Shown here: positions 10,288 to 39,100 of the stretch, piece by piece | How positions within the stretch are numbered: the stretch's first letter is position 1 | Layout: each line of letters begins with the position of its first letter | Assembly (NCBI GenBank): GCA_016212505.1 | Contig: JACRGB010000021.1 | Coordinates: forward strand, 1-55,671 | Length of the DNA: 55,671 nucleotides | Source: Candidatus Micrarchaeota archaeon | Lineage (GTDB): Archaea > Micrarchaeota > Micrarchaeia > Anstonellales > Bilamarchaeaceae | Direction of reading: 5' to 3' | Translations under genes and position numbers: made by a program | Notes under the pieces: generated by a model | The model's database searches: none | Told to the model about the DNA's origin: nothing | Seen by the model: only the letters and a program-made list of their open reading frames with translations

Positions 10288-10382
10288 TCTTACACCAAGA
10301 TAAGTTATGGATACTCTCAATTAAATATATTAATTAGGCCCTTTTCGATATACTTTTAAACTTGCGATCACTATATTTTACT

Positions 10383-10676
10383 ATGCAAAAAAGAGAAGAA
10401 ATTGAGAAGAAACTTCGATCTTCCTTAGCAGCAGTCAAAAAGAATTTTGCCGTCAAATCCTTAGGTATTTTTGGATCATACGTTAGGAATGAACAAACTA
10501 ATCTAAGTGATGTTGATATTCTGGTGGAATTTGAAAAAACACCTGGTCTATTCAAATTTTTGGAACTAGAAGAATATCTTACTTCTATAACTGGTGTAAA
10601 GGTCGATCTGGTTATGAAGACCTCATTAAAGCCTTTTTTGGGAAAAGTAATTCTAAATGAGGTTGTTTATCTGTGA
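10383..10676 (+). CDS. mntA: MNT minimal nucleotidyltransferase antitoxin
   Basis: FGSYVR...SDVDILV (GSx10DxD), KVDLV; overlaps the HEPN start. Confidence 0.9.
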   Translation: MQKREEIEKKLRSSLAAVKKNFAVKSLGIFGSYVRNEQTNLSDVDILVEFEKTPGLFKFLELEEYLTSITGVKVDLVMKTSLKPFLGKVILNEVVYL

Positions 10677-11020
10677 AAGGCAATTTTCAAGATTCTTTGC
10701 AAGACATTTTAGTTTCTATTCAAAAAATAAACGAATTTATTCAAGGCATGGATTTTGAAGATTTCCGTGAAGATCATAAGACTATATACGCAGTTATACG
10801 CGCTCTTGAAATAATTGGTGAAGCATCCAAGAATATTCCTGAGGACATTAAACAACAAAACAAAAATATTCCCTGGAAATTAATGATCGGAATGAGAGAT
10901 AAGCTCATTCATGAATATTTTGGCGTCGATTTGACTGTATTATGGAATACAGTTAAGGAAGATATTCCACCATTAGAGAATCTGGTTGTAAAACTTTTGG
11001 CTCGTTATGGTAAGAAATAA
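10673..11020 (+). CDS. hepT: HEPN (DUF86) RNase toxin
   Basis: LEIIGEA and RDKLIHEY (Rx4HxY). Confidence 0.9.
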   Translation: MKGNFQDSLQDILVSIQKINEFIQGMDFEDFREDHKTIYAVIRALEIIGEASKNIPEDIKQQNKNIPWKLMIGMRDKLIHEYFGVDLTVLWNTVKEDIPPLENLVVKLLARYGKK

Positions 11021-11880: not shown

Positions 11881-14805
11881 ATGGAGCAAAGACTGGAAAT
11901 TGCAATAAAAAACGGCCTGAAAGATGTCCAGGGCGATCAGCTTGCACAGCGAATCGCAGCCGCCTTCGGAATCAAGGCTAATTGCAAATTTATAGACGTT
12001 TACAACTTTTCTGATCGGCTTTCTGATGAAGAGATGGAAATCCTTGCAAAAGAAGTTTTCTGCGATTTAGTTGTCCATGATTATTCTTTTAGGGAACCAC
12101 TTTTTGGTGAGCAGTGGCGGCTTGAGATTGGTATGCTTCCTGGAGTAACCGATAATGTTGGAAAAACCGCAACCGAGGCCATAAAAGACCGGCTCGGAAA
12201 AGATGTCCAGGTTTATTACTCGAGAATTTTCGTGATTAGACCAAATAACCCTAACCCGGGCTCAAATAATTTTGTTGACGAATTTTTATGCGAGCGGATT
12301 GCTACCATGGTTTCCAATCCATTAGTAGAAAAGCACAATGTTTATGCTCCAGGATCAGAAGTCCAGCCCTATTTACCAATTGTCCATATTCCCAAAACCC
12401 CGAACGTCGAAACGTTCAGCCTTAATGCCAGCGATGCGCGGCTTGCTACACTTGCAAAAGAGCGGCTTCTTGCGCTTTCTCTTGATGAGATGAAAGAAAT
12501 CAAGTATTATTTACGTAAGGACACCGTGCTTGCGGAGCGCAAGAAATTTGGTCTGGATAATCATATTACAGATGTCGAGCTTGAAGCACTCGCCCAGACC
12601 TGGAGTGAGCATTGCAAGCACAAGATTTTCAATGCGCTGATAAAATACGATGAAGACGGGGAATTGCACCCGATAAATTCGCTTTTCAAGACCTTCATAA
12701 AAGGTGCGACTGATCAGATCAAAAAACCCTACGTTATTAGCGTGTTCAAGGACAATGGCGGAATAATAAAATTCAATCCCGAATTTGACATCGCGATAAA
12801 AGTCGAGACCCACAACGCGCCCTCTGCGCTCGATCCGTATGGTGGTGCCTTAACCGGCGTTCTCGGAGTTCAGCGGGATGTTCTTGGCACCGGTATGGGT
12901 GCGAATCCGATCGCGAACATAGATGTTTTGTGCTTTGGCCGGGCCGACACCCCGCAAAAAGAAGTTCCAAAAGGAGTGATCCATCCAAAGGCAATTTCTG
13001 ACGGCGTTGTCCTTGGCGTCGAGCATGGCGGGAACAAGATGGGGATCCCGACAATAAACGGCTCGATAGTTTATGAAAATGGCTTTGTTGCAAGGCCACT
13101 GGTCTATTGCGGAACAATCGGAATACTCCCATCAACAATCAAGCATCATCGGACATCAGAAAAACATATTGAACCTGGATACTTAGCGGTAATGGTTGGC
13201 GGAAGAATTGGAAAAGACGGGATCCACGGGGCTACTTTTTCATCCATGCAGATCGATGCCCATGTTCCTCAAAGCGTGGTGCAGATTGGAGACCCTATAA
13301 CTCAAAAGAAAATGCTTGATTTTATTATTGCAGCAAGGGACGAATTGCTTTATGAGGCCATAACTGATAATGGCGCAGGCGGCTTATCATCAAGTATAGG
13401 AGAACTTGCGCAGCTTTCTGGTGGATGTGAAATTTATCTTGATAAATGCCCGCTCAAATATCCCGGCCTGGACCCTTGGGAAATACTTGTTTCAGAATCA
13501 CAGGAACGCATGACTATCGCTGTTAAGGAAAGCAGTTTGGCCCGGTTAAAGGAAATTGCAGCAACATTTGCAGTTGAGGTCTCGGTCGTAGGGAAATTCA
13601 CAAAAAACAAGAAGTTCCACGCGCTTTACAACAACACTACGGTTGCTTATTTGGATATGAAATTCCTCCATGAAGGAGTTCCACAACTGAAATTGAAAGC
13701 ATCATGGAAAAAATTAACTTATCCAGAACCAAAAATCCCGGAATTTGATCCGCTCGATATACTCCATCAACTTTTATCCTCGCCAAATATTACTACCAAG
13801 GAGCGCGTAATTAGGCGATATGACCATGAAGTTAAAGGAATGAGCGTGATTAAGCCGATAATGTTCGGGCCTTCTGATGCAGGAGTTATCCGGCCAGTAT
13901 CAGACTCGCAAGAGGGGCTGGTGCTAGCTCACGGAATTTGCCCAAGATATGTTCAGGATGGCTATGCAATGGCTTCACTTGCATTTGATGAGGCAGTCCG
14001 GAATGCAATCTGTGTTGGTGCCAAGTTCGGCTATCTTGCCTGCCTCGATAATTTCTCCTGGCCCGACCCGATAAAATCAGATAAAACCCCGGACGGAGAG
14101 CAGAAACTCGGATCTTTGGTACGCGCATGCATTGCATTTTATGATTGTGCTACGAGCTACGGTATTCCAATAATTTCAGGAAAAGATTCTATGAAAAATG
14201 ACTATTATACTGGTGATAAAAAATACTCGATACCCCCAACTCTCTTGGTTACGGTTATCGGCAAAATGGACAATGTTTCAAAAGCAGTAAGTTCGGAATT
14301 CAAGACTTCGGGCTCTTATATCTATGTCCTTGGCAAGACACGTGATGAACTTGGAGGCAGCGAGTTCTACAAACTTTTCAATGGGGTTGGCAACCGGCCG
14401 CCACAAATTTATCCAGATGAACATATTCCATTGTACAAGGGATTATGTCATGCGATCGAGGACGGCCTTGTTGAATCAGCCCATGATATTTCTGACGGTG
14501 GTCTTGCGGTTGCTTTTGCAGAGTGCGTTATTGGCCTTGGGCTTGGGGCCGAACTTGACCTTGGCCAAATAAAGGCAGAAACGAAAAAAGAAGATTCCTT
14601 GTTGTTTTCCGAAAGCTCTGGCAGGTTTATTGTAAGTGTTAGCGCAAACAAAATCGATCATTTTGAAAAAGTTATGCACGGAACAATTTTCGCCCGTGCA
14701 GGAAGAGTTCGTGGTGATCGGAGATTTATAATAAAGAGTGCGGACCAGATAATTGTTAATGATGAAGTCGAGAGGCTAAAAGAATCATTTAATAAGGGAA
14801 TTTGA
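11881..14805 (+). CDS. purL: Phosphoribosylformylglycinamidine synthase PurL with N-terminal PurS-like extension
   Basis: QTWSEHCKHK, KVETHNAPS, DGIHGATFSS, SESQERM, SGKDS, HDISDGG; no glutaminase domain. Confidence 0.93.
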   Translation: MEQRLEIAIKNGLKDVQGDQLAQRIAAAFGIKANCKFIDVYNFSDRLSDEEMEILAKEVFCDLVVHDYSFREPLFGEQWRLEIGMLPGVTDNVGKTATEAIKDRLGKDVQVYYSRIFVIRPNNPNPGSNNFVDEFLCERIATMVSNPLVEKHNVYAPGSEVQPYLPIVHIPKTPNVETFSLNASDARLATLAKERLLALSLDEMKEIKYYLRKDTVLAERKKFGLDNHITDVELEALAQTWSEHCKHKIFNALIKYDEDGELHPINSLFKTFIKGATDQIKKPYVISVFKDNGGIIKFNPEFDIAIKVETHNAPSALDPYGGALTGVLGVQRDVLGTGMGANPIANIDVLCFGRADTPQKEVPKGVIHPKAISDGVVLGVEHGGNKMGIPTINGSIVYENGFVARPLVYCGTIGILPSTIKHHRTSEKHIEPGYLAVMVGGRIGKDGIHGATFSSMQIDAHVPQSVVQIGDPITQKKMLDFIIAARDELLYEAITDNGAGGLSSSIGELAQLSGGCEIYLDKCPLKYPGLDPWEILVSESQERMTIAVKESSLARLKEIAATFAVEVSVVGKFTKNKKFHALYNNTTVAYLDMKFLHEGVPQLKLKASWKKLTYPEPKIPEFDPLDILHQLLSSPNITTKERVIRRYDHEVKGMSVIKPIMFGPSDAGVIRPVSDSQEGLVLAHGICPRYVQDGYAMASLAFDEAVRNAICVGAKFGYLACLDNFSWPDPIKSDKTPDGEQKLGSLVRACIAFYDCATSYGIPIISGKDSMKNDYYTGDKKYSIPPTLLVTVIGKMDNVSKAVSSEFKTSGSYIYVLGKTRDELGGSEFYKLFNGVGNRPPQIYPDEHIPLYKGLCHAIEDGLVESAHDISDGGLAVAFAECVIGLGLGAELDLGQIKAETKKEDSLLFSESSGRFIVSVSANKIDHFEKVMHGTIFARAGRVRGDRRFIIKSADQIIVNDEVERLKESFNKGI

Positions 14806-27446: not shown

Positions 27447-28358
27447 ATGTCAACTGCAACAAAATGTCCAGAATGTAAAAGTAAGAGAATTATTAGAGAT
27501 TATGAGAAAGGGGAACTCCTTTGCGGTAATTGTGGATTAATCATAGCAGACAATATTCACGATCTTGGTCCAGAGTGGCGTGCATTTGATGCCGAGCAAA
27601 AGGAAAAGAAAGCAAGAGGAGGGGCTCCAATAAAGTACATGAAGCCAAATAAAGGCCTTGTAACAGAAATCGACCAATACAACAGGGACATCCGGGGAGG
27701 CAAAATCAGCCCCAAGAAACAGGCTCAGCTCTACCGTATGAGAAAATGGCACAAGAGGGTTTCTATTGCTACTTCAATGGAAAGAAACCTGGTCATTGCA
27801 CTGGCCGAATTGGACCGTGTTGCATCTGCACTCGGTCTTCCAGAGAACATAAAGGAAAGTGCTGCATTGCTTTACCGAAAGGCAGTTAAGGAAGAATTGA
27901 TCCGGGGAAGGTTGATCGAATCAGTTGTTGCTGCAGTTATCTATGGTATTTGCAGGATGCAGGGAATTCCAAGAACCTTAGACGAAATCTCCCGCGCATC
28001 GGGCATTGAGAAAAAGGAAATAGGCCGGGCATACCGGTTCCTCAAGAGCGAACTGAAAATCGATGTTCCTCTTACCGATCCGGCCCAATATGTCCCTAAA
28101 TTCTCGACCGCACTACGTTTGGGTGGGGAAGTTCAGGATGAGGCAGTAAAATTAATCAAAAAAGCCCTGAAAAAGGGCCTTATTTCCGGGCGTGGCCCAA
28201 CCGGCGTTGCCGCTGCGGCAGTTTACATTGCGAGCGCAATGCACGGCGAGAAAAAGACCCAGAAAGAAGTTGCTGATGTTGCTGGAGTAACTGAAGTAAC
28301 TATCCGGAACAGGTACCGCGAGCTCAAAAAAGAATTGGGCCTTAAGGTTAATCTGTAA
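27447..28358 (+). CDS. tfb: Transcription initiation factor IIB
   Basis: CPEC...CGNCG Zn ribbon, GPEWRAF, two cyclin repeats, VTEVTIRNRY. Confidence 0.98.
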   Translation: MSTATKCPECKSKRIIRDYEKGELLCGNCGLIIADNIHDLGPEWRAFDAEQKEKKARGGAPIKYMKPNKGLVTEIDQYNRDIRGGKISPKKQAQLYRMRKWHKRVSIATSMERNLVIALAELDRVASALGLPENIKESAALLYRKAVKEELIRGRLIESVVAAVIYGICRMQGIPRTLDEISRASGIEKKEIGRAYRFLKSELKIDVPLTDPAQYVPKFSTALRLGGEVQDEAVKLIKKALKKGLISGRGPTGVAAAAVYIASAMHGEKKTQKEVADVAGVTEVTIRNRYRELKKELGLKVNL

Positions 28359-28648: not shown

Positions 28649-29350
28649 ATGGGTGAAGTTATCGTTAGTCGGGAACCTAAGGGTTTTATGGACAGATCAC
28701 AAACTAAGGCCTTTGCTGCAGCTCTTTCACGTTTCGGGTTTAGGGAAACCACGCCAGTCTATAATGCGGCAGAAGGTAACTTTACTCCATTTTATTTAGT
28801 TCGTGAATCGCCTCAGTATAATCTTAAAATTTCTGGAACAATTCCCACCCTCCTCTATATCGCTACACTAGCTGAACTGGCCAGAACGGGCGGAGATGCT
28901 CATACCACATTTGATTCTGTCCCAGTTGAAGTTGCAATATCTTTCTCCATTGCTGCAACAAAAGGCCTTTCGCTATTACCTGTTGCATTTGACACTAAAG
29001 CGCATACTGTAGCTATCAGTTCATCTAGTTCAGCTGAGCAAATTTATTCTGCCTCACTTTGGTTTACCGATGATCCTCACCAGCTGATGGGCTGGGCAAC
29101 TTTGCTACACCACCAGATTTCTATTATTTCTGCTGGTCCAGTTCTAAGTGGTGCTGTTGATGCCCGTGCAATGGAGGCTAGCATTTCTAAAGCTCTTGAT
29201 GAAAATCGAACTAATGCACATCATCAGGGCATAAGCTCTTACATGACAAACGCCTTTGATTATCTGCAACAATGCTACGACCGGGCGATAGATGGCCTTC
29301 GGCAAAACCCGACTCTTGCTCAGGCGATGGATGCGGTTGTTGATAAATAA
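28649..29350 (+). CDS. Hypothetical protein
   Basis: 233-aa ORF filling the intergenic space; no recognised motif. Confidence 0.65.
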   Translation: MGEVIVSREPKGFMDRSQTKAFAAALSRFGFRETTPVYNAAEGNFTPFYLVRESPQYNLKISGTIPTLLYIATLAELARTGGDAHTTFDSVPVEVAISFSIAATKGLSLLPVAFDTKAHTVAISSSSSAEQIYSASLWFTDDPHQLMGWATLLHHQISIISAGPVLSGAVDARAMEASISKALDENRTNAHHQGISSYMTNAFDYLQQCYDRAIDGLRQNPTLAQAMDAVVDK

Positions 29351-29412
29351 CTTTTACTTGCTCTTTCACTTCCACCTACCTTTTAACTTCATCCAATTAA
29401 TAGCAAAAGAAT

Positions 29413-29486
29413 ATGATGAATGTTCGACAGGCTGAGTGAACGGGTTCGCAAGGATTCGGGATCTATGAGGATACTTCTATCTCTGA
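29413..29486 (+). ncRNA. Box C/D sRNA 1
   Basis: C ATGATGA (29413), 12-nt guide, D' CTGA (29432), GCAA-capped hairpin, C' ATGAGGA (29465), 11-nt guide, D CTGA (29483). Confidence 0.8.
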
Positions 29487-29533
29487 ACCAATTCATCATC
29501 ATTTTTAATTCCGTCTTCTATAATCCCTACTTA

Positions 29534-29601
29534 TTGATGAAAATGCAATACCACTGAAATTTCTGGAAACAGAAATTAATGACGACGATCTTGAGTTCTG
29601 A
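29534..29601 (+). ncRNA. Box C/D sRNA 2, predicted tRNA-Leu(CAA) Cm34 guide
   Basis: C TTGATGA, 13-nt guide, D' CTGA (29554), AATTTCTG-GAAA-CAGAAATT hairpin, C' ATGACGA (29579), guide CGATCTTGAGTT, D CTGA (29598). Confidence 0.8.
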
Positions 29602-29713
29602 ATAAAATGAAGAACTCGAGATACGTGAACGCATTCACGAATATCTTGAGTTCTGAATAAAATGAAGAACTCGAGAGATGTGACCGTAGTCACATTGATC
29701 TTGAGTTCTGAAT
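29588..29713 (+). repeat. 55-bp-period tandem array of C/D-box hairpin units
   Basis: ATCTTGAGTTCTGAATAAAATGAAGAACTCGAGA at 29588 and 29643, partial third copy at 29698; two different 21-nt self-complementary spacers. Confidence 0.9.
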
Positions 29714-29733
29714 CAAAAATAAAAAGGGAAAAT

Positions 29734-30246
29734 ATGAACAAGGGGGTAGTTTTCGGGTCAGGCCTAGTTCTCGGCATAATTATTTGTTATTTTGCATACC
29801 CTCTGGTAGGTCATTCCGCAGTCACTCCAGTTTTCTCCCCTGATGATGGCCAGCAGGTAATTAATTTCATCAATAGCGCCCAAACTTCACTGGATGTTGA
29901 AGTCTATGTTTTTACTTCACATGATGCAGCTCTTGCAATAGAAAAAGCCAAATCGCGCGGGGTTAAGGTGCGAGTTATCCTGGAACCTGATGTTGATGGG
30001 TCTAATGACAAAATATTCGGCGAGTTATTATCGAGCGGAATAGAAGTTAGGTGGGCATCCAAATTCTATCGCCTTACCCACGCCAAATTTATCGTCGTGG
30101 ATGGGCAGGCTGTTTTGGTCGGTTCGCACAACTTGAGCAACGCTGCGCTCCGCCAAAACCGGGAAGCTTCAGTAATTGTTTATGATTCTTCGGTCGTTTC
30201 ACAATTTGAAAAAACATTCCAAACCGACTGGACGCTTGCTTCCTAA
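29734..30246 (+). CDS. Single-HKD phospholipase D/Nuc-like enzyme with N-terminal membrane anchor
   Basis: VFSP, RGVKVRVIL, HAKFIVVD..GSHN, NRE. Confidence 0.88.
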   Translation: MNKGVVFGSGLVLGIIICYFAYPLVGHSAVTPVFSPDDGQQVINFINSAQTSLDVEVYVFTSHDAALAIEKAKSRGVKVRVILEPDVDGSNDKIFGELLSSGIEVRWASKFYRLTHAKFIVVDGQAVLVGSHNLSNAALRQNREASVIVYDSSVVSQFEKTFQTDWTLAS

Positions 30247-30266: not shown

Positions 30267-31262
30267 TTAGGTTCGCCTTTGCAATATGTACTGCCCATAA
30301 ATTTTTGCAAATAACCCATACTCACCACGGCCTAATTTCACGACCTGGCCACTTTCAAGCAATCTTCTTACGAGTGCCATCAGCGGGCCCTGGCCCATCC
30401 TGGTTTTCTTAGAAATTTCCGATATTCTCTGTGCATCCGGCTCTGCATACCTTGCAGTTTCTGCAAATTCTGCGAGCGCCTTTAGTATTTTTCTCTCACT
30501 CTCGCTAGATTGTGCATAAAGCTGCCCGAACCATTCGCTTTCGAGGTTGTTCATTATCTCATCCAGCTGCTCAAGGTAATGCGCTTTTGATATCATCTGC
30601 TCATTTTCTGCAAGCGTCTCATAAAGCTGCCCGCACATTATGTTTACGATTCGCGGGTTTGCGCTGCTGTCATTTACTATAGCGTTAAAGCATTCTTCGC
30701 CCATTTTCAGGTTCCTTTCCCTAAGGTCCTTTTCAATAAGTTCTTCAATATCGTGCTTGTTCAGATTCGCCAATACCATCTGATTTTCGATTTCATCATA
30801 GTGCAGTGTTGAACTGATAACGAAAATTACTCTTCCCTTGTTTTGGCCCGCTATCCTAAGCAGGCTGCTTATTATTGCAGGTGCGTTTTTCGATTTCTCC
30901 ATATCATCTATTAGTATGGCTAAAGGCTCATGCGGGCCATGCCCTGCTATTGCCCTAACCAATGTCTTGATTCCAGAATATTTTTTCTCCTTCCCGCTAG
31001 TTAATTGCCTCAGCACCTTATCTGCAATATCCCCCTCAGCTTCGCCGATTTCCACCTTTACATAGACTACTCCCATCCCTTTCCTTTGCGATTCTTTTTT
31101 CAAGAATTTCAAAATTGCGCTTTTGCCTATTCCAGATGGCCCCACTAAGAGTTCTACACCCGCACTTAACTGTTCCATATCCACTTTCAGATGACTCAGT
31201 TCCTTTTTCCTTCCGTAGATATCTCCGTGGGTTCTTATCTTATCCAAATAAGGCACAGTCAT
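30267..31262 (-). CDS. Archaeal-type AAA ATPase with C-terminal winged helix
   Basis: YGRKKEL, GPSGIGKS Walker A, ILIDD Walker B, ANPR, C-terminal wHTH (RGEY). Confidence 0.8.
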   Translation of the reverse strand: MTVPYLDKIRTHGDIYGRKKELSHLKVDMEQLSAGVELLVGPSGIGKSAILKFLKKESQRKGMGVVYVKVEIGEAEGDIADKVLRQLTSGKEKKYSGIKTLVRAIAGHGPHEPLAILIDDMEKSKNAPAIISSLLRIAGQNKGRVIFVISSTLHYDEIENQMVLANLNKHDIEELIEKDLRERNLKMGEECFNAIVNDSSANPRIVNIMCGQLYETLAENEQMISKAHYLEQLDEIMNNLESEWFGQLYAQSSESERKILKALAEFAETARYAEPDAQRISEISKKTRMGQGPLMALVRRLLESGQVVKLGRGEYGLFAKIYGQYILQRRT

Positions 31263-31344: not shown

Positions 31345-34300
31345 ATGAACTTGCGCCTAGTGGTGGGGTTAGTGTTACTTCTTCTCATCTCTAGTGTCTT
31401 TGCCGAAGTTTTCCAGCCGGCATTTAAGGAAACTCACGTAGTTATACAGCGAACTGACGAACCACTCAAAATACACCTCAAAATCAGCGTTCTTGTTTTT
31501 CCTCCTGAAGTTTCTGTTCCTGGTTTCCAGCAGGAATCAAATGTCCAGAGCATTATCAAGGCCTGCCAGCAGACTAAGCCCGATGAGGTAGAAAAATGTC
31601 TGCTTGAGAAAAGCTCAGAAGATCTGGATAATACCCAACGGGCCAAAAAAATCCCTGAAACTGCTGCAAATAAAGTCCTCAAAGTGGAATATCTAACTGC
31701 AGGCGGTTTTGCTTCCCTTGCAGGCTGCGACAATATCAAAACAGACCAGATGATGCCGGTACAATCCCCTTCTGGCGATCTGGTTAATTACTATTATGCA
31801 GTTTGTGATATTGACCTTAATCAGTTCAAGGGTACAAATAGGCTTATCATAAAAATCACGTTCATACCAGATGATCCAGCCCTCCAGTTTGCCCAGAATA
31901 CGATCACAATAGACAATGCTGCTGGAGGAACTGTAGTTGACCAGTTCAACACCAATCTCAATGATTTTATTGCAAGTGTTGCCAGTGCCGGCGGTACTGG
32001 AGTTGGTCCTGGCACTCTTCCTTGTTTTGGCGTCTTCCTTATTTTGGGACTGCTGCTTGCATCGATGTATTTTGCAGGCAAATCACCCATTTCGCTTCTT
32101 GATATTACCACCCCACGGCTCCCCACACCAAAAGGTGTAGTTGCAGGCGGTCAGGTGCTTGGCCCATTTGGTTATACTGAAATGAAAAATGCAACAAAAA
32201 TGAAGATGAAGGCGAATATGAAAGCCATTGAAGAAACAGTCAAAAAGCTGTCATTGGTCGGCCGACTAGATGGTACAACCAGGAACCTGATGAACTCAGT
32301 CACAAAAGGCCGGTTTGTTGACCGAAGCAAGGCACTTGGTGCAGGTGATGCAGCTGAGCAGCAGGCTGTAGTAAAAGGCCTTATCGCAGGAGGCCATCTT
32401 GTTGGCATAACTCCCGATCGCCTTGCCAATTTAACAAATAAGCTTCCTTATTATTACGGTCAGGAAGAACATCGTATCGCTGCAGATATTATAAGGCGGC
32501 TTGAGCTAAGCGGAGGCCAAAATGCCCTTCTTGCAATGACCATAAAAGACAGTCTTCTCGGAATCCGGACTTTCCAGAGCCTGGAAGTTCTTACCGGCCA
32601 TCCAGAGATGCGCAGGGAAGGTGGCTGGTACTATATGGCCACCGCCCCGCTTGGTAAAATGTTCGGTGCAAACCGGTATGCGATCCTTAGCGGTATCGTA
32701 ATGTCCGGAACCGATTCGATGTTCCGAAGCGGAAGGCTTATTGGTCGTATGACTTGGGCTGGAATAAAACATGCCCCGGTCATGGTAGGCGCAATTGCCA
32801 AGCAGCCTCTTAACTGGACCGGTGCAACTGCTGCACTTCAAAGAAAGGCCGCAACTTCTCCGGTTGCGAAGGCAATTTATGACTCAGTAACATATGCGCC
32901 AAAAATCGAAATCGGAAACATGTTCCCGATAATCGATAAGATGCAGTTCCATTACCGCACCCTGCGCGATGAAGTTTTGCGCGATGAAATGCGCTATGTC
33001 CTTAGGCAGATTTACCGGAAAATGGGCATTGAATTCAATATTAGCGAACAGCGGATGCTCGAGATGGGGCATAAGGATGTGGATATACTTCGCGAATCGA
33101 ACTACCATAATGCCCGCGCCAATCTTGCTGATGTTGAAAGGCAAATCAGGGCCATACTATCTGCTCCCCTCCTTATCCCTAATCCCCCTGCCGGCTTATC
33201 ATTTGCCCAGGAGGAGCACCATCGTGATGTCATCAAATTTCATGCTGATTTTAACAAGCTCGAGCAGCTCATTAATCTTGCAAACACCCATGGAGCACAT
33301 ATAGATGTCCGTGCCCTTAACCTCCGGGACCGCGTTGAACATATTGAAAATGATAATAATACCCCGGAATATTTCAAGGCACTTGCCCTTACTTCTGAAC
33401 TTGATGCTCATAATGTTGTCCGTACTAATGCCCTCTCGCAGCACACCGTTCGCGCTGATGATTATCATTGCCATGTCGGAGGGGACAGCCTAAGGGGAAC
33501 CGAAATCTGGGAAACACACGTACTTAGGAAAATGGTTTGGGATGCAGAAAACGGATATCTCACTCACGGGGGAATAGCCGAAGAGCTAAAAGCTGCAAGA
33601 TTAAATATTGTAAATCGGCTTGCGACGCTTGATCCTACTGCTGCAGACTCTTTAGGCAAACCAGGATATCTCCAGCTCCCAACATTTATGCATGATCTTG
33701 ATGATCTTCATGCAGTTGCAAGAAGAAACCGAAGTGACTTACTTTCCTTATTTACTGATGAAGGTAGGGCACATTTTGCAGATATTCGAAGCGCACAGGG
33801 CAAGGACCCAAACCTGAATAACGCTTCAATCGCTGAAATAGTATCTTTCATGGAAGGAGGAAGAATTCCAAAACACGGTGAGCTACAAGGAGGAAGAATG
33901 ATCCATTGGGTTGCCCAAGCGGAATTCGGGCTTCCCCAAAACAATACACTTGTTGATCTAAAAGGGCAGTGGGCAACTGGCCTTGAGGCAAGGAAAAATT
34001 TTGCCCTCTCACAATGGACCGAGTCCCGTTTCACGCGTGGTTATGCGGTGGCATACAAGGGTTCAATAGAAGCAGAGCTTAATGATCTTGAGCGCCGCCA
34101 GGGTGCTGCTTTTTCAGATAGTGAGCGGACTGAGCGGGCAAAAATGCTTTGGATACGTGACCTATTTGTCCAGGATATGGAGCAAAGGTTCAATTCCGTA
34201 TTTGGCCATAACACTTATGGGACCACACACGAAACAACAAGGTTCCATACTGGGGTTATTTGCGGATTCCTTCAAAAAGCACTTAAGGATGAAGGAAGGC

Positions 34301-36312
34301 CAGAAACTGATCCTCTTGTTCAGGAGCTTAATGATCTAAACACTGATGATCGCACTAAGCGTGGCAGGCTTCTTGAAATACTCACCCAGCATCAGGCTGC
34401 TTTTGAAAAACAGATTTACGATCGGGCTGCTGATGGTACCTTGACCCCAAAGAAAGTACATGAAAGTGATATCTCCGGTGCAAAAACCGCAATGGTTATG
34501 CTCCAGGAAGGGGGCTATGCTTATTACAAAAAAGGAATGATCCTTTCCGATCAGGACCGTATCCTTGGCGGGGAAATGTCGATCCGGGATCATAAAGGCC
34601 AGCTAAGAAAATTCGATCCTGATGATGTTACGGTTAAATTCGGGGATGACCCTCAGGGGCAGCACTTAGCTGGAATGTGGGGAAATCTACAATCTTTAAG
34701 ATCAAAATATACGATTGAAGCAGAGCGACAACATGCAGGGGGAATAGACGAGCAAGCCCGTTGGGGGCCTTTCGTTGCGGAGCTTCAAAATTGGGCAAAA
34801 TCCCCAGCATCCGGAAGCCAGGAAAGATACGAAAGACAAAAAGTGCTTGGTTCGGTACTCTGGAGATATGGCCAGACCACACACGACTATACGAGGTTCT
34901 GGCATGACTGTGATGTTTCAATTGCGGCAAAACGTGAAGTTACCCCTCTTACCCCAGGATTATTCAGGCACTTTGGTGCAGGTGACACTGCATTTGGTGA
35001 TGCCCTTGCATCGGCATACAAACCAATACGTGATCTTGCCTTGCCTGCGGGTGATTACCTGACAAGAATTGCGCTTCTTGCAGGCGGATCACTCTTTAAG
35101 GCATCTTATGATGTTATTCCAACTTCAGAATACTATCGTCAGCATTCAATGAAATTAGCAAGCAGGATATTTGCAAAAGAATTCGAATCTGGCCTTGATG
35201 ATGAGGAAAAAAGGCTCTACAATGCAGTTGCAATGTCACATGGCGCATATCATCAGGTATGGGACTATTGCATTGACCGGCACCCCGGAAGGACATCAAC
35301 TTCTTATGGCAGCCACAATGCCTGGGCAGGGTTTTTCCAGTTTGGCCCTTCCACCCAATATGGTGTAGCTGATAATCTGCGTGCTTATCTTGATAATGGG
35401 CAGTACTGGAACTTTATGTTCCATGGCGGTTTTGCAATGGACCTTGCAGGTGCTGCCTTTGCCCCATTTCTAAACCAGTTAAGGGGGCTTCAGATGTCGA
35501 TGCAGGGGTATGCATCAAAATGGGATGCAACTGATGATGCACTTAAGCAATGGGATTACACCACCCCCCGTGTCCGCGAATCTATGCAAATACTTAACCC
35601 ATTTGCATTTGGCCGTGGGCTTGAAGGGTTCGGATATAAGTTCCCCAAATTTATCGGGAATGTGATAAATAAACTTTCTTCAGTAAACTATATTGAAAGC
35701 TCACTTGAGCGCAGGCAACTTGCAGGGGTCGATTTCCAGAAAGGCCTTTGGCAGGCCCCTCAGGATATTTTCCTTACCCGTAAGGGAGTTTATATGAGCG
35801 CAAGAACCGATGAAGAAAATCCCGGGTTATCTCACACTAACTACCGAAAAGAAATCCGCATGGATGCAGGAATGATGGAATACCTTTTCCGTGGCCAGGA
35901 AGCATCTTACCTCTATGATGTTAATGCCCGCCGCATGGCAATGGAAAATACCGTAAGGAGAAATGTTGGTGCTGAAGCGCTAGCAATAAGGCGAAACCAG
36001 GAACTTTATTCGTTCGGAATTTTACAAAACTCAATGTGGGGCTGGGCAAACCCCCTTGCATTTGTATGGCACGTTCCTCCTCCTGGTTTTCCCCCATCAA
36101 TTACCCCTAAGGATATCATCACTAAATTTGTCGGCTGGGCAAAACATGGCCAACCATTCTTTGGCGGCGGCGGATTCTTCAAAAGTGCAGCATTCAATGT
36201 TACCACTTTCATGCAGCCACATAAGCTTAGCATGGTTGTTTATTGCCCTATGTGCAGTACCCCTAATTACCGGGGAAGCAGGTGCAGGACCTGCCGCAGT
36301 TTGCAGTACTGA
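31345..36312 (+). CDS. Giant (1655 aa) membrane protein: signal peptide, extracellular domain, TM, long cytoplasmic region, C-terminal Zn ribbon
   Basis: SSVFA cleavage site; TM FGVFLILGLLLASMYFA; terminal CPMC..CRTC. Confidence 0.8.
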   Translation: MNLRLVVGLVLLLLISSVFAEVFQPAFKETHVVIQRTDEPLKIHLKISVLVFPPEVSVPGFQQESNVQSIIKACQQTKPDEVEKCLLEKSSEDLDNTQRAKKIPETAANKVLKVEYLTAGGFASLAGCDNIKTDQMMPVQSPSGDLVNYYYAVCDIDLNQFKGTNRLIIKITFIPDDPALQFAQNTITIDNAAGGTVVDQFNTNLNDFIASVASAGGTGVGPGTLPCFGVFLILGLLLASMYFAGKSPISLLDITTPRLPTPKGVVAGGQVLGPFGYTEMKNATKMKMKANMKAIEETVKKLSLVGRLDGTTRNLMNSVTKGRFVDRSKALGAGDAAEQQAVVKGLIAGGHLVGITPDRLANLTNKLPYYYGQEEHRIAADIIRRLELSGGQNALLAMTIKDSLLGIRTFQSLEVLTGHPEMRREGGWYYMATAPLGKMFGANRYAILSGIVMSGTDSMFRSGRLIGRMTWAGIKHAPVMVGAIAKQPLNWTGATAALQRKAATSPVAKAIYDSVTYAPKIEIGNMFPIIDKMQFHYRTLRDEVLRDEMRYVLRQIYRKMGIEFNISEQRMLEMGHKDVDILRESNYHNARANLADVERQIRAILSAPLLIPNPPAGLSFAQEEHHRDVIKFHADFNKLEQLINLANTHGAHIDVRALNLRDRVEHIENDNNTPEYFKALALTSELDAHNVVRTNALSQHTVRADDYHCHVGGDSLRGTEIWETHVLRKMVWDAENGYLTHGGIAEELKAARLNIVNRLATLDPTAADSLGKPGYLQLPTFMHDLDDLHAVARRNRSDLLSLFTDEGRAHFADIRSAQGKDPNLNNASIAEIVSFMEGGRIPKHGELQGGRMIHWVAQAEFGLPQNNTLVDLKGQWATGLEARKNFALSQWTESRFTRGYAVAYKGSIEAELNDLERRQGAAFSDSERTERAKMLWIRDLFVQDMEQRFNSVFGHNTYGTTHETTRFHTGVICGFLQKALKDEGRPETDPLVQELNDLNTDDRTKRGRLLEILTQHQAAFEKQIYDRAADGTLTPKKVHESDISGAKTAMVMLQEGGYAYYKKGMILSDQDRILGGEMSIRDHKGQLRKFDPDDVTVKFGDDPQGQHLAGMWGNLQSLRSKYTIEAERQHAGGIDEQARWGPFVAELQNWAKSPASGSQERYERQKVLGSVLWRYGQTTHDYTRFWHDCDVSIAAKREVTPLTPGLFRHFGAGDTAFGDALASAYKPIRDLALPAGDYLTRIALLAGGSLFKASYDVIPTSEYYRQHSMKLASRIFAKEFESGLDDEEKRLYNAVAMSHGAYHQVWDYCIDRHPGRTSTSYGSHNAWAGFFQFGPSTQYGVADNLRAYLDNGQYWNFMFHGGFAMDLAGAAFAPFLNQLRGLQMSMQGYASKWDATDDALKQWDYTTPRVRESMQILNPFAFGRGLEGFGYKFPKFIGNVINKLSSVNYIESSLERRQLAGVDFQKGLWQAPQDIFLTRKGVYMSARTDEENPGLSHTNYRKEIRMDAGMMEYLFRGQEASYLYDVNARRMAMENTVRRNVGAEALAIRRNQELYSFGILQNSMWGWANPLAFVWHVPPPGFPPSITPKDIITKFVGWAKHGQPFFGGGGFFKSAAFNVTTFMQPHKLSMVVYCPMCSTPNYRGSRCRTCRSLQY

Positions 36313-36496: not shown

Positions 36497-39100
36497 ATGA
36501 ACCGAACTAGTATTTTCCTCCTGTTGAGCATATTGGCTCTCATCTTCGTTTATGGCTGTGCCCAGACTACTAATTTTTCTGATGCTTATGTAAAAGAACT
36601 AAAAGGAATAACTGCAGCCAACCCAAATGGCCAGGTATTTGCTGCCGTTAACTCATCTGCCTTCCAATCCTGTATCGCCGGCAAATGCACCTGCATGGTA
36701 TGTAAGAACGGCACGAGCTTTTTTCCATTTTACAATTCCTTAGTTGGCGGTGAATGCCATTTCGAGCAGAACTGTGATGCCGATAAATTTAATGCGCTCA
36801 CATCCGGCAAATACCAGAATGACCCGAGCCTTTTCCCAAGGCAATTTATGGTTGGCCAGGGCCCTACCATGAGCGATTTTGGGGATGGAAATCCATATTG
36901 TTCTAATCGTCTTGGGATGGCGGTGCAGTGGCTTGTTGGCAGCAATGTTACCCCATATAATCTTCCGAACGCCGGAGCGGCGATATGCTCATTGGATGCA
37001 GGAGTAATGCCGCTTTATGTCCTTTATACAAACAGCACCAACATCAACACTACCCGCTCAAAAGAAATAGCGCAATACCTCCAACAAAACGGAAAATCTT
37101 ACTCTGGCAGGACAAATGATAAGGTTGGACCTACAATAATCACCACTGAGATCGATTATAACAGCAGCAACGACACAGTTGTCCAGCTGGTGGCTGATCA
37201 GGTTGAAGCTATTTATTCAGGTTGCGGAAACAGTGAAAAGCCCGATCCCCTTGATCCTACTGATGGATCAAAAACCATAAAAACAAGAAACTGCCTTGTT
37301 GCACTGGCGCCAATGATTAATGATCGGAAGGGACTGGATAAAGTAATGAACAAAGTCGGCGCTGATGGCAGGAAAATATCTGATAAAGTTGACCTTGTCG
37401 CATTCGGAGTTAATTACCGGAACATGACCAGCTGCGATGGTGATAAGTTACTGCTTCAGGCATCCTCTTTTGCAACATACGCGCTTTATACCTGGGGCAA
37501 GCCCACGGTAATCCCCTATATTTTATTTGACTCTGAAGGTACTGATTTTACTGACGATAAGCATCTTCCGACATGCCACTGGAGCGAATATTATATGCAA
37601 AGGGCCTATTCATCGTTCTTCGGAAGTGCAATACTGGTCCTCCCCAGGAATGGGGTTATCGGGATGGCCCCATACTCGTTCAACTCTGCCCGCTTTGGCT
37701 TTAACCCGCTAAACTGCAAAGACTGCGATCTTGGAAAAAGCATCGAGCGCATCGCTTCCTGGTATGGCGGATGCCAAAAATATACTACCATAAGCAGCCA
37801 GATCGGCGCTTCAGTGTCTACCCACCCTTCGGCAGGGACCCTTCTCGTATTTTCAAATACTTCCGGAGGTTACTGCTCTTTCAATGATCAGTATGACTTT
37901 CTTATTAAGGGTTTCACCTTTGCTTCAAGAGATATTGCACAGCAACAGGCTCCTGGTTTAGAAAAAGATGTCAAATCTCTTGTGCGGTGCGATGCCTGCT
38001 TGAGCGAGAGCGCAAAAGGATCCCCATTTAAGCTCGGGGATTCTTCGATTGGCAATCCCCCTAATGAGAAAAAATATTGTACAAGTTATCCTGAAATAGA
38101 TTATTGGGCATCGAGAAGAGGATTGGATCCGAGCATTTTGCGATCAGTGATCTATAGCGAAAGCGACTTCACCCCCTGCAGCGTTGCGAAAGTCTGCAGC
38201 CCTGCCTATCTTGCGGATAATCCAAATGATAAGACCTGCTTCCCCACCAGCGAATGTTATGCCAAAGGATACGATTCAATGGTTGATCCGTCCGGGCAAT
38301 GCGGTCCATTTCCCAAAGCTGACCAATACAAAGGCCAGCCTGCTTACCGCTATTGTGCGATGGGCATAACACAAATACTTGAGCCGCCATATACTTTCTG
38401 GCCTGAAGGACCGAATGCACAAATCCTAAAAGATGCGCAAAATCGTGGGTTGGGCCCAAATATTCAAAGGGCAAGGGACTGCAGTCCGAAATTCAACCCA
38501 TTTAACGTCGAAGATGCGCTTTGTGCTGGATCAGCAGAACTTGCGGATAAATTTGCTGCTGCAAAAAAAGAAGTTGCTGATGCGCACAAGAAACAGCAGC
38601 TTAACTGGTATCCTACTGATAATGATTATATTGAAAAAGAAAACCTTATGGTTGCCTATGTTGCCTTAATGAAATACCGAGGGTTCTGGGAATCAAGTTT
38701 TACTAACAAAATTTTTGCTGACCGGCTCGATAAAAAAAATCTTTGCCGGGATTTTGGTTATAAAACTCCGGCAGATTGCTATTTCCAGATGTATTCTAAC
38801 AGCTGGTATTATGATTCAGACTTTTGTGCCAATAATCCAAACGATGGCCACTGTGCAAATGGAAAACCAAAAGACGGTTTTTGCGCTGATATCCACGATC
38901 CAATAGAATTTATTGACACTTGTTTTGCCAATAATGATCCGGCTGCAAAAGAACTGGCAAACTACTATGTTTTACGCGATAAATGCTCTACCAGCAGCTG
39001 CCCGTCATGGAAAAAAGTATATGATTTAATGCAGTCTTCCAACCTTCCAAATAAACCAAAGCTTCCCAAAAGTGGAAATACAAATGTTCCGGATAAATGA
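36497..39100 (+). CDS. Secreted Cys-rich protein with C-terminal lytic transglycosylase (SLT/GH23-like) domain
   Basis: FVYGC leader; IDYWASRRGLDPSILRSVIYSESDF (catalytic ES), AMGITQI, FNVEDALCAGSAEL. Confidence 0.7.
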   Translation: MNRTSIFLLLSILALIFVYGCAQTTNFSDAYVKELKGITAANPNGQVFAAVNSSAFQSCIAGKCTCMVCKNGTSFFPFYNSLVGGECHFEQNCDADKFNALTSGKYQNDPSLFPRQFMVGQGPTMSDFGDGNPYCSNRLGMAVQWLVGSNVTPYNLPNAGAAICSLDAGVMPLYVLYTNSTNINTTRSKEIAQYLQQNGKSYSGRTNDKVGPTIITTEIDYNSSNDTVVQLVADQVEAIYSGCGNSEKPDPLDPTDGSKTIKTRNCLVALAPMINDRKGLDKVMNKVGADGRKISDKVDLVAFGVNYRNMTSCDGDKLLLQASSFATYALYTWGKPTVIPYILFDSEGTDFTDDKHLPTCHWSEYYMQRAYSSFFGSAILVLPRNGVIGMAPYSFNSARFGFNPLNCKDCDLGKSIERIASWYGGCQKYTTISSQIGASVSTHPSAGTLLVFSNTSGGYCSFNDQYDFLIKGFTFASRDIAQQQAPGLEKDVKSLVRCDACLSESAKGSPFKLGDSSIGNPPNEKKYCTSYPEIDYWASRRGLDPSILRSVIYSESDFTPCSVAKVCSPAYLADNPNDKTCFPTSECYAKGYDSMVDPSGQCGPFPKADQYKGQPAYRYCAMGITQILEPPYTFWPEGPNAQILKDAQNRGLGPNIQRARDCSPKFNPFNVEDALCAGSAELADKFAAAKKEVADAHKKQQLNWYPTDNDYIEKENLMVAYVALMKYRGFWESSFTNKIFADRLDKKNLCRDFGYKTPADCYFQMYSNSWYYDSDFCANNPNDGHCANGKPKDGFCADIHDPIEFIDTCFANNDPAAKELANYYVLRDKCSTSSCPSWKKVYDLMQSSNLPNKPKLPKSGNTNVPDK

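Follow-up and report, generated by a model that had tools for sequence, protein, structure and literature searches.

A 55,671-nt contig of a Candidatus Micrarchaeota archaeon (assembly GCA_016212505.1, contig JACRGB010000021.1; contig C9 in our numbering, hereafter the window) contains, between a TFB gene and a PLD-like gene on the plus strand, a short tandem array that a preliminary description, made from the sequence alone, had framed as CRISPR-like and reminiscent of TIGR arrays. We propose, at a probability of roughly 0.55, that the region is a polycistronic C/D box small RNA (sRNA) locus and not an adaptive array, in which the sRNA designated sR-B would be a working guide for 2'-O-methylation of C34 (Cm34) in tRNA-Leu and for one 16S rRNA site, and the two units repeated downstream of it would be auto-inhibited, derivative half-mers. 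Four box-bounded elements were read from the 383-nt gap between an unannotated open reading frame (ORF; 28649-29350) and the PLDc_2 gene (29734-30246), namely the sRNAs sR-A and sR-B, followed by masked units 1 and 2. The array itself is a twofold repetition of the D guide of sR-B together with its box D, in which every copy stands after a variant of box C and a complement of the guide.

The repeat and its read support

Tandem Repeats Finder reported a repeat at 29587-29718 with a period of 55, 2.4 copies and a score of 197, the second-best score among the 31 rows returned for the whole window being 52. As shown by a repeat search, GATCTTGAGTTCTGAATAAAA occurs three times in register, at 29587, 29642 and 29697 (spacing 55 + 55). 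The exact repeat block is 34 nt, with 29588-29621 identical to 29643-29676, giving two exact copies and a partial third. The intervening 21-nt segments (29622-29642 and 29677-29697) are unlike each other, and each contains a hairpin (CGTGAA-cgca-TTCACG in the first, ATGTGAC-cgta-GTCACAT in the second). The 55-bp period, the 34-nt repeat and the differing hairpin spacers were thus as the preliminary description had given them, as were the positions of CTGA, ATAAA and ATGAAGA, the boxes among which are C/D boxes, and the end of the array about 20 nt before the PLD gene (the last CTGA ends at 29711 and PLDc_2 starts at 29734). When the 1.48-Mb assembly was scanned for a 9-mer plus CTGA recurring within 30-160 nt, this locus alone was recovered.

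Support for the repeat was also sought in Logan contigs of DNA run X1. All 29 bins of the interval 29300-29900 were covered, with zero letter differences; the 34-nt node had a depth of 38.2, compared with about 17 in the flanks, and the first spacer was bridged by an 81-nt contig. Because X1 is possibly the source sample, these contigs count as a second assembler and not as an independent sample. They exclude an assembler artefact for the repeat, the point for which read mapping had been proposed, and the homologous arrays in relatives (see below) likewise speak against an assembly artefact. Run X2 contributed no contigs, and no RNA run was among those listed for this stretch.

sR-B and its targets

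sR-B (29534-29601, plus strand) was read as a canonical dual-guide C/D box sRNA. It comprises a box C TTGATGA (29534-29540), the 13-nt D' guide AAATGCAATACCA (29541-29553), a box D' CTGA (29554-29557), a loop hairpin (29558-29577), a box C' ATGACGA (29579-29585), the 12-nt D guide CGATCTTGAGTT (29586-29597; RNA form CGAUCUUGAGUU) and a box D CTGA (29598-29601). The archaeal consensus has a box C RUGAUGA near the 5' end and a box D CUGA at the 3' end (PMC6009581). All features of C/D sRNAs that were tested are present in sR-B: terminal C and D boxes, internal D' and C' boxes, guides of about 12 nt, a target match and core proteins in the genome. Both guides are unpaired in the fold (z -0.6). 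The core proteins encoded in the genome are L7Ae (PF01248, 4.4e-27), one Nop5 (PF01798, 1.9e-54) and one fibrillarin (PF01269, 1.4e-78).

The preliminary description had taken the repeat to hold a Leu guide, and this claim is borne out. The D guide is complementary to nt 30-40 of tRNA-Leu(CAA), GACUCAAGAUC, through 10 Watson-Crick pairs and one G.U, and the fifth D-guide nucleotide counted from box D lies opposite C34. In this genome, the tRNA-Leu(CAA) gene on contig C24 is interrupted by two introns (after nt 37 and in the T-loop), and the full 11-nt site exists only once the transcript is spliced. The matching site GACTCAAGATC was found in 12 tRNA-Leu(CAA) genes of 12 relatives (nt 30-40, with an intron after nt 37); these were 12 among 23 pattern matches, the remainder being coding DNA or a backward reading of the sRNA. 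Under the box D + 5 rule, the wobble base C34 is the nucleotide on which fibrillarin would place a 2'-O-methyl group. Guides for C34 of tRNA-Leu(CAA) have been described in Pyrococcus (PMC7994747).

The D' guide can pair without interruption over 10 positions with GGTATTGCAT (GGUAUUGCAU) in this genome's 16S rRNA, and this site was unchanged in 21 of 21 small-subunit rRNA segments from the genus. A 16S target was also considered for the D guide: GACTAAAGATC, lying 28 nt upstream of the D'-guide site, offers 9 Watson-Crick pairs and one G.U. It was rejected, as the target nucleotide is mismatched and as members of the genus differ at this site (GACTACAGATC, GGCYGAAGGTC) but not in the guide.

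Several observations on tRNA genes accompany these results. The twice-interrupted tRNA-Leu(CAA) gene lies at C24:3634-3950 (plus strand), with one intron of about 110 nt following nt 37 and another of about 120 nt within the T-loop, and a tRNA-Leu(CAG) gene with a T-arm insert lies on the minus strand of contig C38, about 16.6 kb from the contig 3' end. Only 6 tRNAs passed the Rfam cut-off (6-7 by ARAGORN) in this 90% complete genome, a low count for which multiple or non-canonical tRNA introns probably account.

Anatomy and fold of the masked units

Downstream of sR-B, the D guide and box D recur in two units of 50 nt from C to D, the length given by the preliminary description. Each is preceded by AUAAA and consists, in order, of AUGAAGA, ACUCGAGA, an inner hairpin, AUCUUGAGUU and CUGA. 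The proposed origin from a tRNA-guide sRNA is thereby supported, the D guide and box D of sR-B being what was duplicated. The ATAAA linkers, which run from a box D to the next C-box variant, lie at 29602-29606 and 29657-29661 on the plus strand; judged from its sequence, the linker could form a D'/C'-like K-loop together with the flanking CTGA and ATGAAGA.

Unit 1 (29607-29656, plus strand) contains the C variant ATGAAGA (29607-29613), an anti-guide arm (29611-29623), the inner hairpin CGTGAA-cgca-TTCACG (29624-29639), a guide-copy arm (29642-29654) and a box D CTGA (29653-29656). It folds at -23.5 kcal/mol (z -7.0) and is matched by our covariance model R1 at E 3.6e-11. Unit 2 (29662-29711, plus strand) contains ATGAAGA (29662-29668), an anti-guide arm (29666-29676), the inner hairpin GATGTGAC-cgta-GTCACATT (29677-29696), a guide-copy arm (29699-29709) and a box D (29708-29711); it folds at -24.9 kcal/mol (z -6.2), with an R1 match at E 1.2e-12. 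None of 200 shuffles folded as well as either unit.

In both the minimum-energy and the centroid folds, the guide of the masked unit is buried in a stem of 11-13 bp. When a 196-nt stretch was folded, both duplicate guides paired with their anti-guides, and the first guide, that of sR-B, was found only in a weak 3-bp local helix. The fold is more stable on the plus strand (-59.9 kcal/mol) than on the minus strand (-51.0 kcal/mol). At the base of each unit, a GA 5' of the stem and the GA of CUGA 3' of it make up a sequence compatible with a kink-turn (K-turn). These folds agree with the long hairpin that had been predicted, in which AACTCGAGA pairs with the guide and the positions of the boxes permit a K-turn at the base. 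The inner helices of units 1 and 2 differ by two compensatory double changes (C:G to U:A and A:U to C:G); the earlier observation that the spacers differ yet stay paired therefore holds here, and it extends to at least 12 inner helices among relatives.

The GTGA that had been assigned to a D' position is not kept in relatives, and no conserved C'/D' pair was found in the masked units across an alignment of 16 units. Two other interpretations of the hairpin were rejected. The anti-guide was considered as a D' guide with its own D' box, but CTGA follows the anti-guide in only 3 of the 16 aligned units, which disqualifies this as a general reading. A bulge-helix-bulge splice motif was likewise discarded, the hairpins having just a 2-nt one-sided bulge.

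Conservation of pairing and concerted change

Conservation of the hairpin was examined in the 16 aligned units, which come from 15 genomes. Of the cells in the 11-bp outer stem, 96.6% are paired, a fraction that none of 500 shuffles reached and that sliding the partners lowered to 27-44%. Variation in the outer stem is confined to the 5' arm. The three variable pairs (CG10/UG5/other1, GU12/AU4 and AU14/GU2) contribute 19 wobble cells and 1 mismatch, and these wobbles fit a plus-strand RNA, being mismatches on the other strand or in DNA. An inner helix of 6-10 bp was present in every hairpin-type unit that was folded singly (17 of 20 units, a set that includes one sequence from genome G024 twice, and 11 of 11 in a second set), and the inner helices comprise at least 12 different sequences. 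By hand count, about 19 of 27 units (chance 1 in 16) have a GA immediately before the stem that faces the GA of CUGA, a placement consistent with a K-turn at the foot of the hairpin. Whereas the C variant of this genome reads AUGAAGA, many relatives have GUGAGGA.

In six of the genomes found with R1, the guide nucleotide adjoining box D is a variant, namely A (G130, G118 and G003), C (G103) or G (G091 and G075). Each of the six has the same variant in its sRNA copy as in its unit copy, and the copies of G075 additionally share the non-canonical box CGGA. The anti-guide compensates in three of the six. In all four variant genomes in which tRNA-Leu(CAA) was found, tRNA nt 30 remains G, and therefore the target does not dictate the guide variant. 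The two copies are kept alike either by conversion or slippage, or by a shared need to fit one anti-guide.

Distribution in relatives

The exact 13-mer made up of guide and box D was found in 32 of 40 genomes of the genus, which by this criterion have an sR-B orthologue, and in 76 of 176 genomes of the order; by family, the counts were 53/98 in f1, 17/42 in f6, 2/3 in f7, 2/3 in f8, 1/1 in f11 and 0/19 in f9. When one mismatch was allowed, clustered guide copies were present in 17 of the 40 genus genomes. Hairpin-type units occur in 16 of these 17, and in at least 16 of all 40, the second copy in G042 being without a clear anti-guide; the units of G020 and G052 have diverged. Outside the genus, nine genomes that belong to other genera and to families f6 and f8 showed the same architecture. 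R1, which was built on 16 units found mostly via the guide 13-mer, matched 31 of 151 sampled genomes of the order (23 of 73 in f1 plus this genome, 5 of 42 in f6 and 2 of 3 in f8).

Among 185,579 species, represented by one genome each, a search for two copies 43-73 nt apart returned 20 loci, which by record title comprise 16 from Micrarchaeota, Micrarchaeia or Bilamarchaeaceae, 3 labelled 'archaeon' and 1 bacterial, the last being an unrelated 21-nt coding repeat. A scan of metagenome contigs for three copies returned 6 loci; 3 are of this kind (2 with the same sequence) and have at most three copies, and the other 3 are unrelated repeats. The biggest arrays contain four guide copies (G153, G017 and G024, the last as 2 + 2). 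The longer arrays for which a search had been suggested were not found, no array in any relative or metagenome contig recovered having more than four guide copies.

Beside the Leu-guide motif, a TFB match (87-100% identity) was present in 26 of 36 relatives' loci, some of these matches being partial where they are cut at the end of the locus; 10 of the 36 loci have a PLD homologue on the downstream side of the motif. The linker and box CGAACGAA-GTGAGGA (RNA CGAAC..GAA-GUGAGGA) recur in families f1 and f6, and this shared sequence points to one old origin. The spacing between half-sites ranges from 45 to 129 nt among relatives.

Relatives' loci showed several additional features. Contig C4 of G153 (loci L138 and L139) carries, about 0.8 kb and 50 kb from the four-copy array, two dispersed and partly decayed copies of the guide-CUGA-linker-anti-guide-hairpin series; both lack a downstream guide, and both immediately precede an ORF. 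A conserved element, CCATTACTTTTG..(loop)..CAAAAGTAAAGG.ATTGGTCAAAAGCCC, stands 3' of the sRNA or units in L010 (G024), L018 (G041), L035 (G018) and L037 (G010); it does not occur in this window and may be another structured small RNA. In the sR-B homologues of L010, L013, L017-L019, L021, L029 and L040, the D'-C' loop is enlarged by 1-3 hairpins (to about 110 nt in G024). These include a recurring GAUGAAACUUUUU..AAAAAGUUUC(U/C)GA hairpin with box-like ends, a copy of which also lies in the present genome (C6:~14116-14289, minus strand). In family f6 (L074, L079, L080, L082, L083 and L089), the D' guide of the sRNA is (A)UCUCGAGGUAUUG, which is the sense strand of the genus 16S site and is complementary to the Leu guide at 8 of 9 positions; from these sequences, the D' half looks inverted or replaced.

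sR-A, neighbouring genes and other features of the window

sR-A (29413-29486, plus strand) is a canonical-looking C/D box sRNA in which C, D', C' and D boxes were read from the sequence: box C ATGATGA (29413-29419), D' guide (29420-29431), box D' CTGA (29432-29435), box C' ATGAGGA (29465-29471), D guide (29472-29482) and box D CTGA (29483-29486). Of the 12 positions of its D' guide, 11 pair with 23S rRNA from this genome, and a search of the rRNAs gave no target for its D guide. sR-A has no stable self-structure (z +1.5). [quoted passage not shown]

The TFB gene (27447-28358, plus strand; Pfam TFIIB 1.9e-47, Zn_Ribbon_TF) serves as the upstream synteny anchor. The PLD-like gene (29734-30246, plus strand; Pfam PLDc_2 9.6e-32) begins 22 nt past the last box D and is probably a mere neighbour or a co-transcript of the sRNA cluster. 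This gene shares its reading frame with the ATG found in the second ATGAAGA (29662). Nevertheless, the units were rejected as PLD coding sequence: at 9 of 10 loci the PLD homologues align from residues 1-10 of the short form, and the homologue in G009 has no upstream unit.

Pfam scanning of 50 window ORFs gave housekeeping genes, including those for ArgRS, RIO kinase, aIF1A, aIF2-beta, topoisomerases, PGK, TFB and archease, and zero matches to Cas or Nop families. At gathering thresholds, Rfam gave 0 matches in the whole window; a permissive scan of 29360-29740 gave 21 matches, all far under the cut-offs, and the Rfam family CRISPR-DR55 matched the neighbouring 29517-29560 with an E of only 8.5. 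A genome-wide search for other box-flanked, self-paired hairpins gave 20 candidates with GA versus 6 in the reversed control.

One locus that this search brought up, C28:36058-36267 (minus strand), contains long hairpins with GGA-AGCCC...GGGCU-GA ends that alternate with short cgca-looped hairpins (-71.6 kcal/mol in total). Two window ORFs of 1655 and 867 amino acids (31345-36312 and 36497-39100, both plus strand), for which Pfam gave no match, adjoin a STAND-type ATPase gene (30267-31262, minus strand). At 10362-11020 (plus strand), there is a nucleotidyltransferase/HepT-like RNase pair (an MNT-HEPN-type toxin-antitoxin module); as read from the L011 sequence, a similar pair adjoins the sRNA locus of G017.

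Discussion

According to the favoured reading, the D guide and box D of sR-B would have been duplicated twice in tandem, and the anti-guide (AACUCGAGA) placed before each copy would imitate the tRNA anticodon loop, acting as a pseudo-substrate in cis. The C-variant and D boxes would form the tandem G.A pairs of a K-turn at the base of the unit, with the guide locked in an 11-13 bp duplex with its pseudo-substrate. The cluster would be transcribed as a single precursor; L7Ae would bind the K-turns, and trimming would free sR-B together with two hairpin RNAs of about 50 nt. A free Leu guide would then be present only in sR-B, the masked guides presumably being inactive, and the masked units would be non-guiding K-turn hairpin ribonucleoproteins (RNPs), serving as structural or processing caps or as protein decoys. 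The anatomy of the elements, their complementarities, the fold, its conservation and the covariation are what the sequence analysis shows. From these we infer that the cluster is transcribed, that L7Ae binds and methylation takes place, and that the masked guides are inactive.

Several points weigh against this reading. The guide copies are almost unchanged in most units, which a structural hairpin would not require, so the units could still guide. About half of the genus genomes are without a unit, and the role of the units would therefore be dispensable. Because about 8 of 27 units are without the K-turn GA, and box D is Watson-Crick paired in one type of unit (e.g. in G017, G044 and L130), not all units share the K-turn. 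Searching mostly with the guide 13-mer inflates the apparent invariance of the 3' arm, R1 was trained on the units so found, and the relatives are kin and not independent samples. Finally, template-switch mutation at quasi-palindromes can mimic compensatory change without selection. Template switching can keep short palindromes perfect, so compensation in the inner helices is weaker evidence for selection on RNA.

Near-identity of the guide copies is what would be expected if the units were extra active guides raising gene dosage, an alternative that we hold possible, if rather unlikely. Each unit would then act as a half-mer C/D RNP with one guide, itself producing Cm34 on tRNA-Leu(CAA), and the hairpin would be a storage or assembly form opened by proteins or by the tRNA. 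Consistent with this, the guide and box D are letter-identical in most units while the anti-guide arm drifts in a wobble-compatible manner, the C-variant and D boxes are likewise kept in most units, and the tRNA duplex (10 Watson-Crick pairs and one G.U) has fewer wobbles than the cis duplex. However, an 11-bp duplex between two molecules is at a strong disadvantage against a hairpin within one molecule at -23 to -25 kcal/mol, archaeal guides that work (here sR-A and sR-B) are unstructured, and the units have no C'/D' pair. In some units, moreover, the hairpin outlives loss of the box D or a change of the guide (box D is CTTG in G020 and CTAA in unit 3 of G153, and G052 has a changed guide with compensation), and the guide nucleotide next to box D varies among U, A, C and G without tracking the constant G30 of the tRNA.

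A further proposal, which we advance tentatively and regard as doubtful, is that Micrarchaeota possess a family of self-masked C/D guides, each a K-turn RNP whose tRNA-Leu(CAA) wobble guide is already paired in cis with a mimic of the anticodon loop. The array would be a conditional guide or pseudo-substrate that tunes Cm34 of tRNA-Leu(CAA) and thus UUG decoding, and would do more than supply additional guide copies. Such tuning could operate through a strand-displacement switch or through a decoy titrating Nop5, fibrillarin and L7Ae.

A three-segment switch seems improbable. In it, the anti-guide would have two alternative partners, the guide of sR-B on its upstream side and the guide copy on its downstream side, and the array would determine, co-transcriptionally or conditionally, whether sR-B has a free guide. 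The first guide and first anti-guide can indeed form a hairpin (-15.9 kcal/mol, z -5.7) when the downstream copy is left out, and the variants shared by both copies in six of six genomes, with compensation by the anti-guide in three and a tRNA nt 30 that stays G in the four with a tRNA-Leu(CAA) match, are those expected if both copies had to fit one anti-guide. Yet gene conversion or repeated slippage between tandem copies would yield the same pattern, and the CGGA box shared in G075 points to conversion; the anti-guide is uncompensated in 2-3 of the six genomes, and downstream pairing wins outright in the full-length fold.

It is very improbable, in our judgement, that the units have no RNA function and are by-products of slippage or template switching at palindromic DNA, or else an inverted-repeat DNA operator. 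Their frequent gain, loss and decay (about half of the genus without a unit, decayed dispersed copies in G153), the concerted evolution of the copies, and the general knowledge that quasi-palindrome correction can mimic compensatory change would be compatible with such an origin. Against it, almost all changes in the anti-guide are transitions that give G.U in the plus-strand RNA and would be mismatches in DNA (the 19 wobbles and single mismatch described above), the CGAACGAA-GTGAGGA linker and box are kept across f1 and f6, GA is enriched at the K-turn position, and a half-site spacing of 45-129 nt is unlike that of an operator.

The likeness to TIGR and CRISPR arrays, from which the preliminary description had started, is topological only, and membership in either fails on every feature tested. 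The locus does share with TIGR-Tas systems tandem units, C/D-like anchors, two 8-12-nt segments by the boxes and variable palindromes (PMC12045711). TIGR arrays are described as having an adjacent gene for a Nop-domain Tas protein, usually 5-15 units, variable dual spacers of about 9 nt and CCA/UG motifs, and TIGR stem-loop arrays as having 8-12-nt spacers with variable palindromes flanking each unit (PMC12045711). TIGR-Tas thus combines variable dual spacers, CCA/UG motifs without a K-turn, a Tas gene and DNA targets (Faure et al. 2025, PMC12045711). Here, by contrast, the guide is constant and the variable part structural, an arrangement opposite to that of TIGR and CRISPR; the 'spacers' beside the boxes are mutually complementary, the target is a tRNA, the boxes are of the K-turn type RUGAUGA/CUGA, the copies number 2-4, and no Tas or Cas gene is present among the 50 ORFs. 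CRISPR arrays, moreover, hold unrelated, similarly long spacers from foreign DNA between identical repeats and come with cas genes or a leader close by, whereas the segments here are self-complementary hairpins that covary in relatives, with a tRNA-directed guide in the repeat. The absence of a Nop-domain gene from the window had been noted correctly, the only Nop match in the genome lying on contig C3; the additional Nop or Tas paralogues that had been suggested as a search target did not appear in the genome-wide search, which gave this single match. A guide array with a Nop-domain or Cas effector is therefore hardly tenable: its superficial likeness in tandem units, C/D-type boxes and variable palindromes between conserved parts, which TIGR stem-loop arrays also have (PMC12045711), stands against a constant guide with a housekeeping tRNA target, variable parts that are self-paired hairpins, 2.4 copies here and at most four in any array found, a sole, Nop5-like Nop gene on C3, zero Cas or Tas families among the window ORFs scanned, and boxes other than CCA/UG.

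The locus is closer to known archaeal C/D sRNAs. With its C, D', C' and D boxes, 12-13-nt guides, a D guide facing C34 and core proteins in the genome, sR-B resembles these, and it differs from the usual tRNA guides in that its second guide targets 16S rRNA and its host belongs to the Micrarchaeota of the DPANN; tRNA guides are usually paired with an orphan guide (Lui et al. 2018, as cited in PMC7994747). Clusters of 2-3 sRNA genes have been described (PMC7994747), and clustered or polycistronic, duplicated and circularly permuted C/D sRNA genes are known (Tripp et al. 2017, cited in PMC7994747; PMC6009581). As in such clusters, 2-4 genes stand here in a row without separate promoters, a guide and box are duplicated, and D-linker-C junctions of tandem duplications are present. 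Unlike in those clusters, the D' half of the duplicates is replaced by the complement of their own D guide, which gives a conserved self-paired hairpin. A MITE-like sRNA element of Pyrobaculum calidifontis, as presented in PMC6009581, was dismissed as a parallel, its inverted repeats lying outside the C/D boxes and those here inside. L7Ae-binding K-turns in the 5' untranslated regions of mRNAs (Daume et al. 2017, PMC5539422) are, like the units, stem-loops with a base capable of tandem G.A pairs, and the last unit stands 22 nt before the PLD start codon, but the PLD gene is kept in only 10 of the 36 relatives' loci. In the search listings and the passages cited here, neither a conserved guide/anti-guide unit nor sRNAs of Micrarchaeota were described. 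What seems new here is the conserved guide/anti-guide unit; clusters, duplications and permutations of C/D sRNAs were already known.

As a caution, tandem C/D-box repeats with hairpin 'spacers' may resemble TIGR arrays without being such. For the DPANN, in which small RNAs are almost unstudied, the locus documents C/D sRNAs, a guide for the wobble base of tRNA-Leu and a twice-interrupted tRNA target. Free guides are thought to be necessary for C/D box guide RNAs. If the favoured reading is true, a lineage-conserved unit that buries its guide under a mimic of the target would represent natural auto-inhibition or decoying of a small nucleolar ribonucleoprotein (snoRNP) guide.

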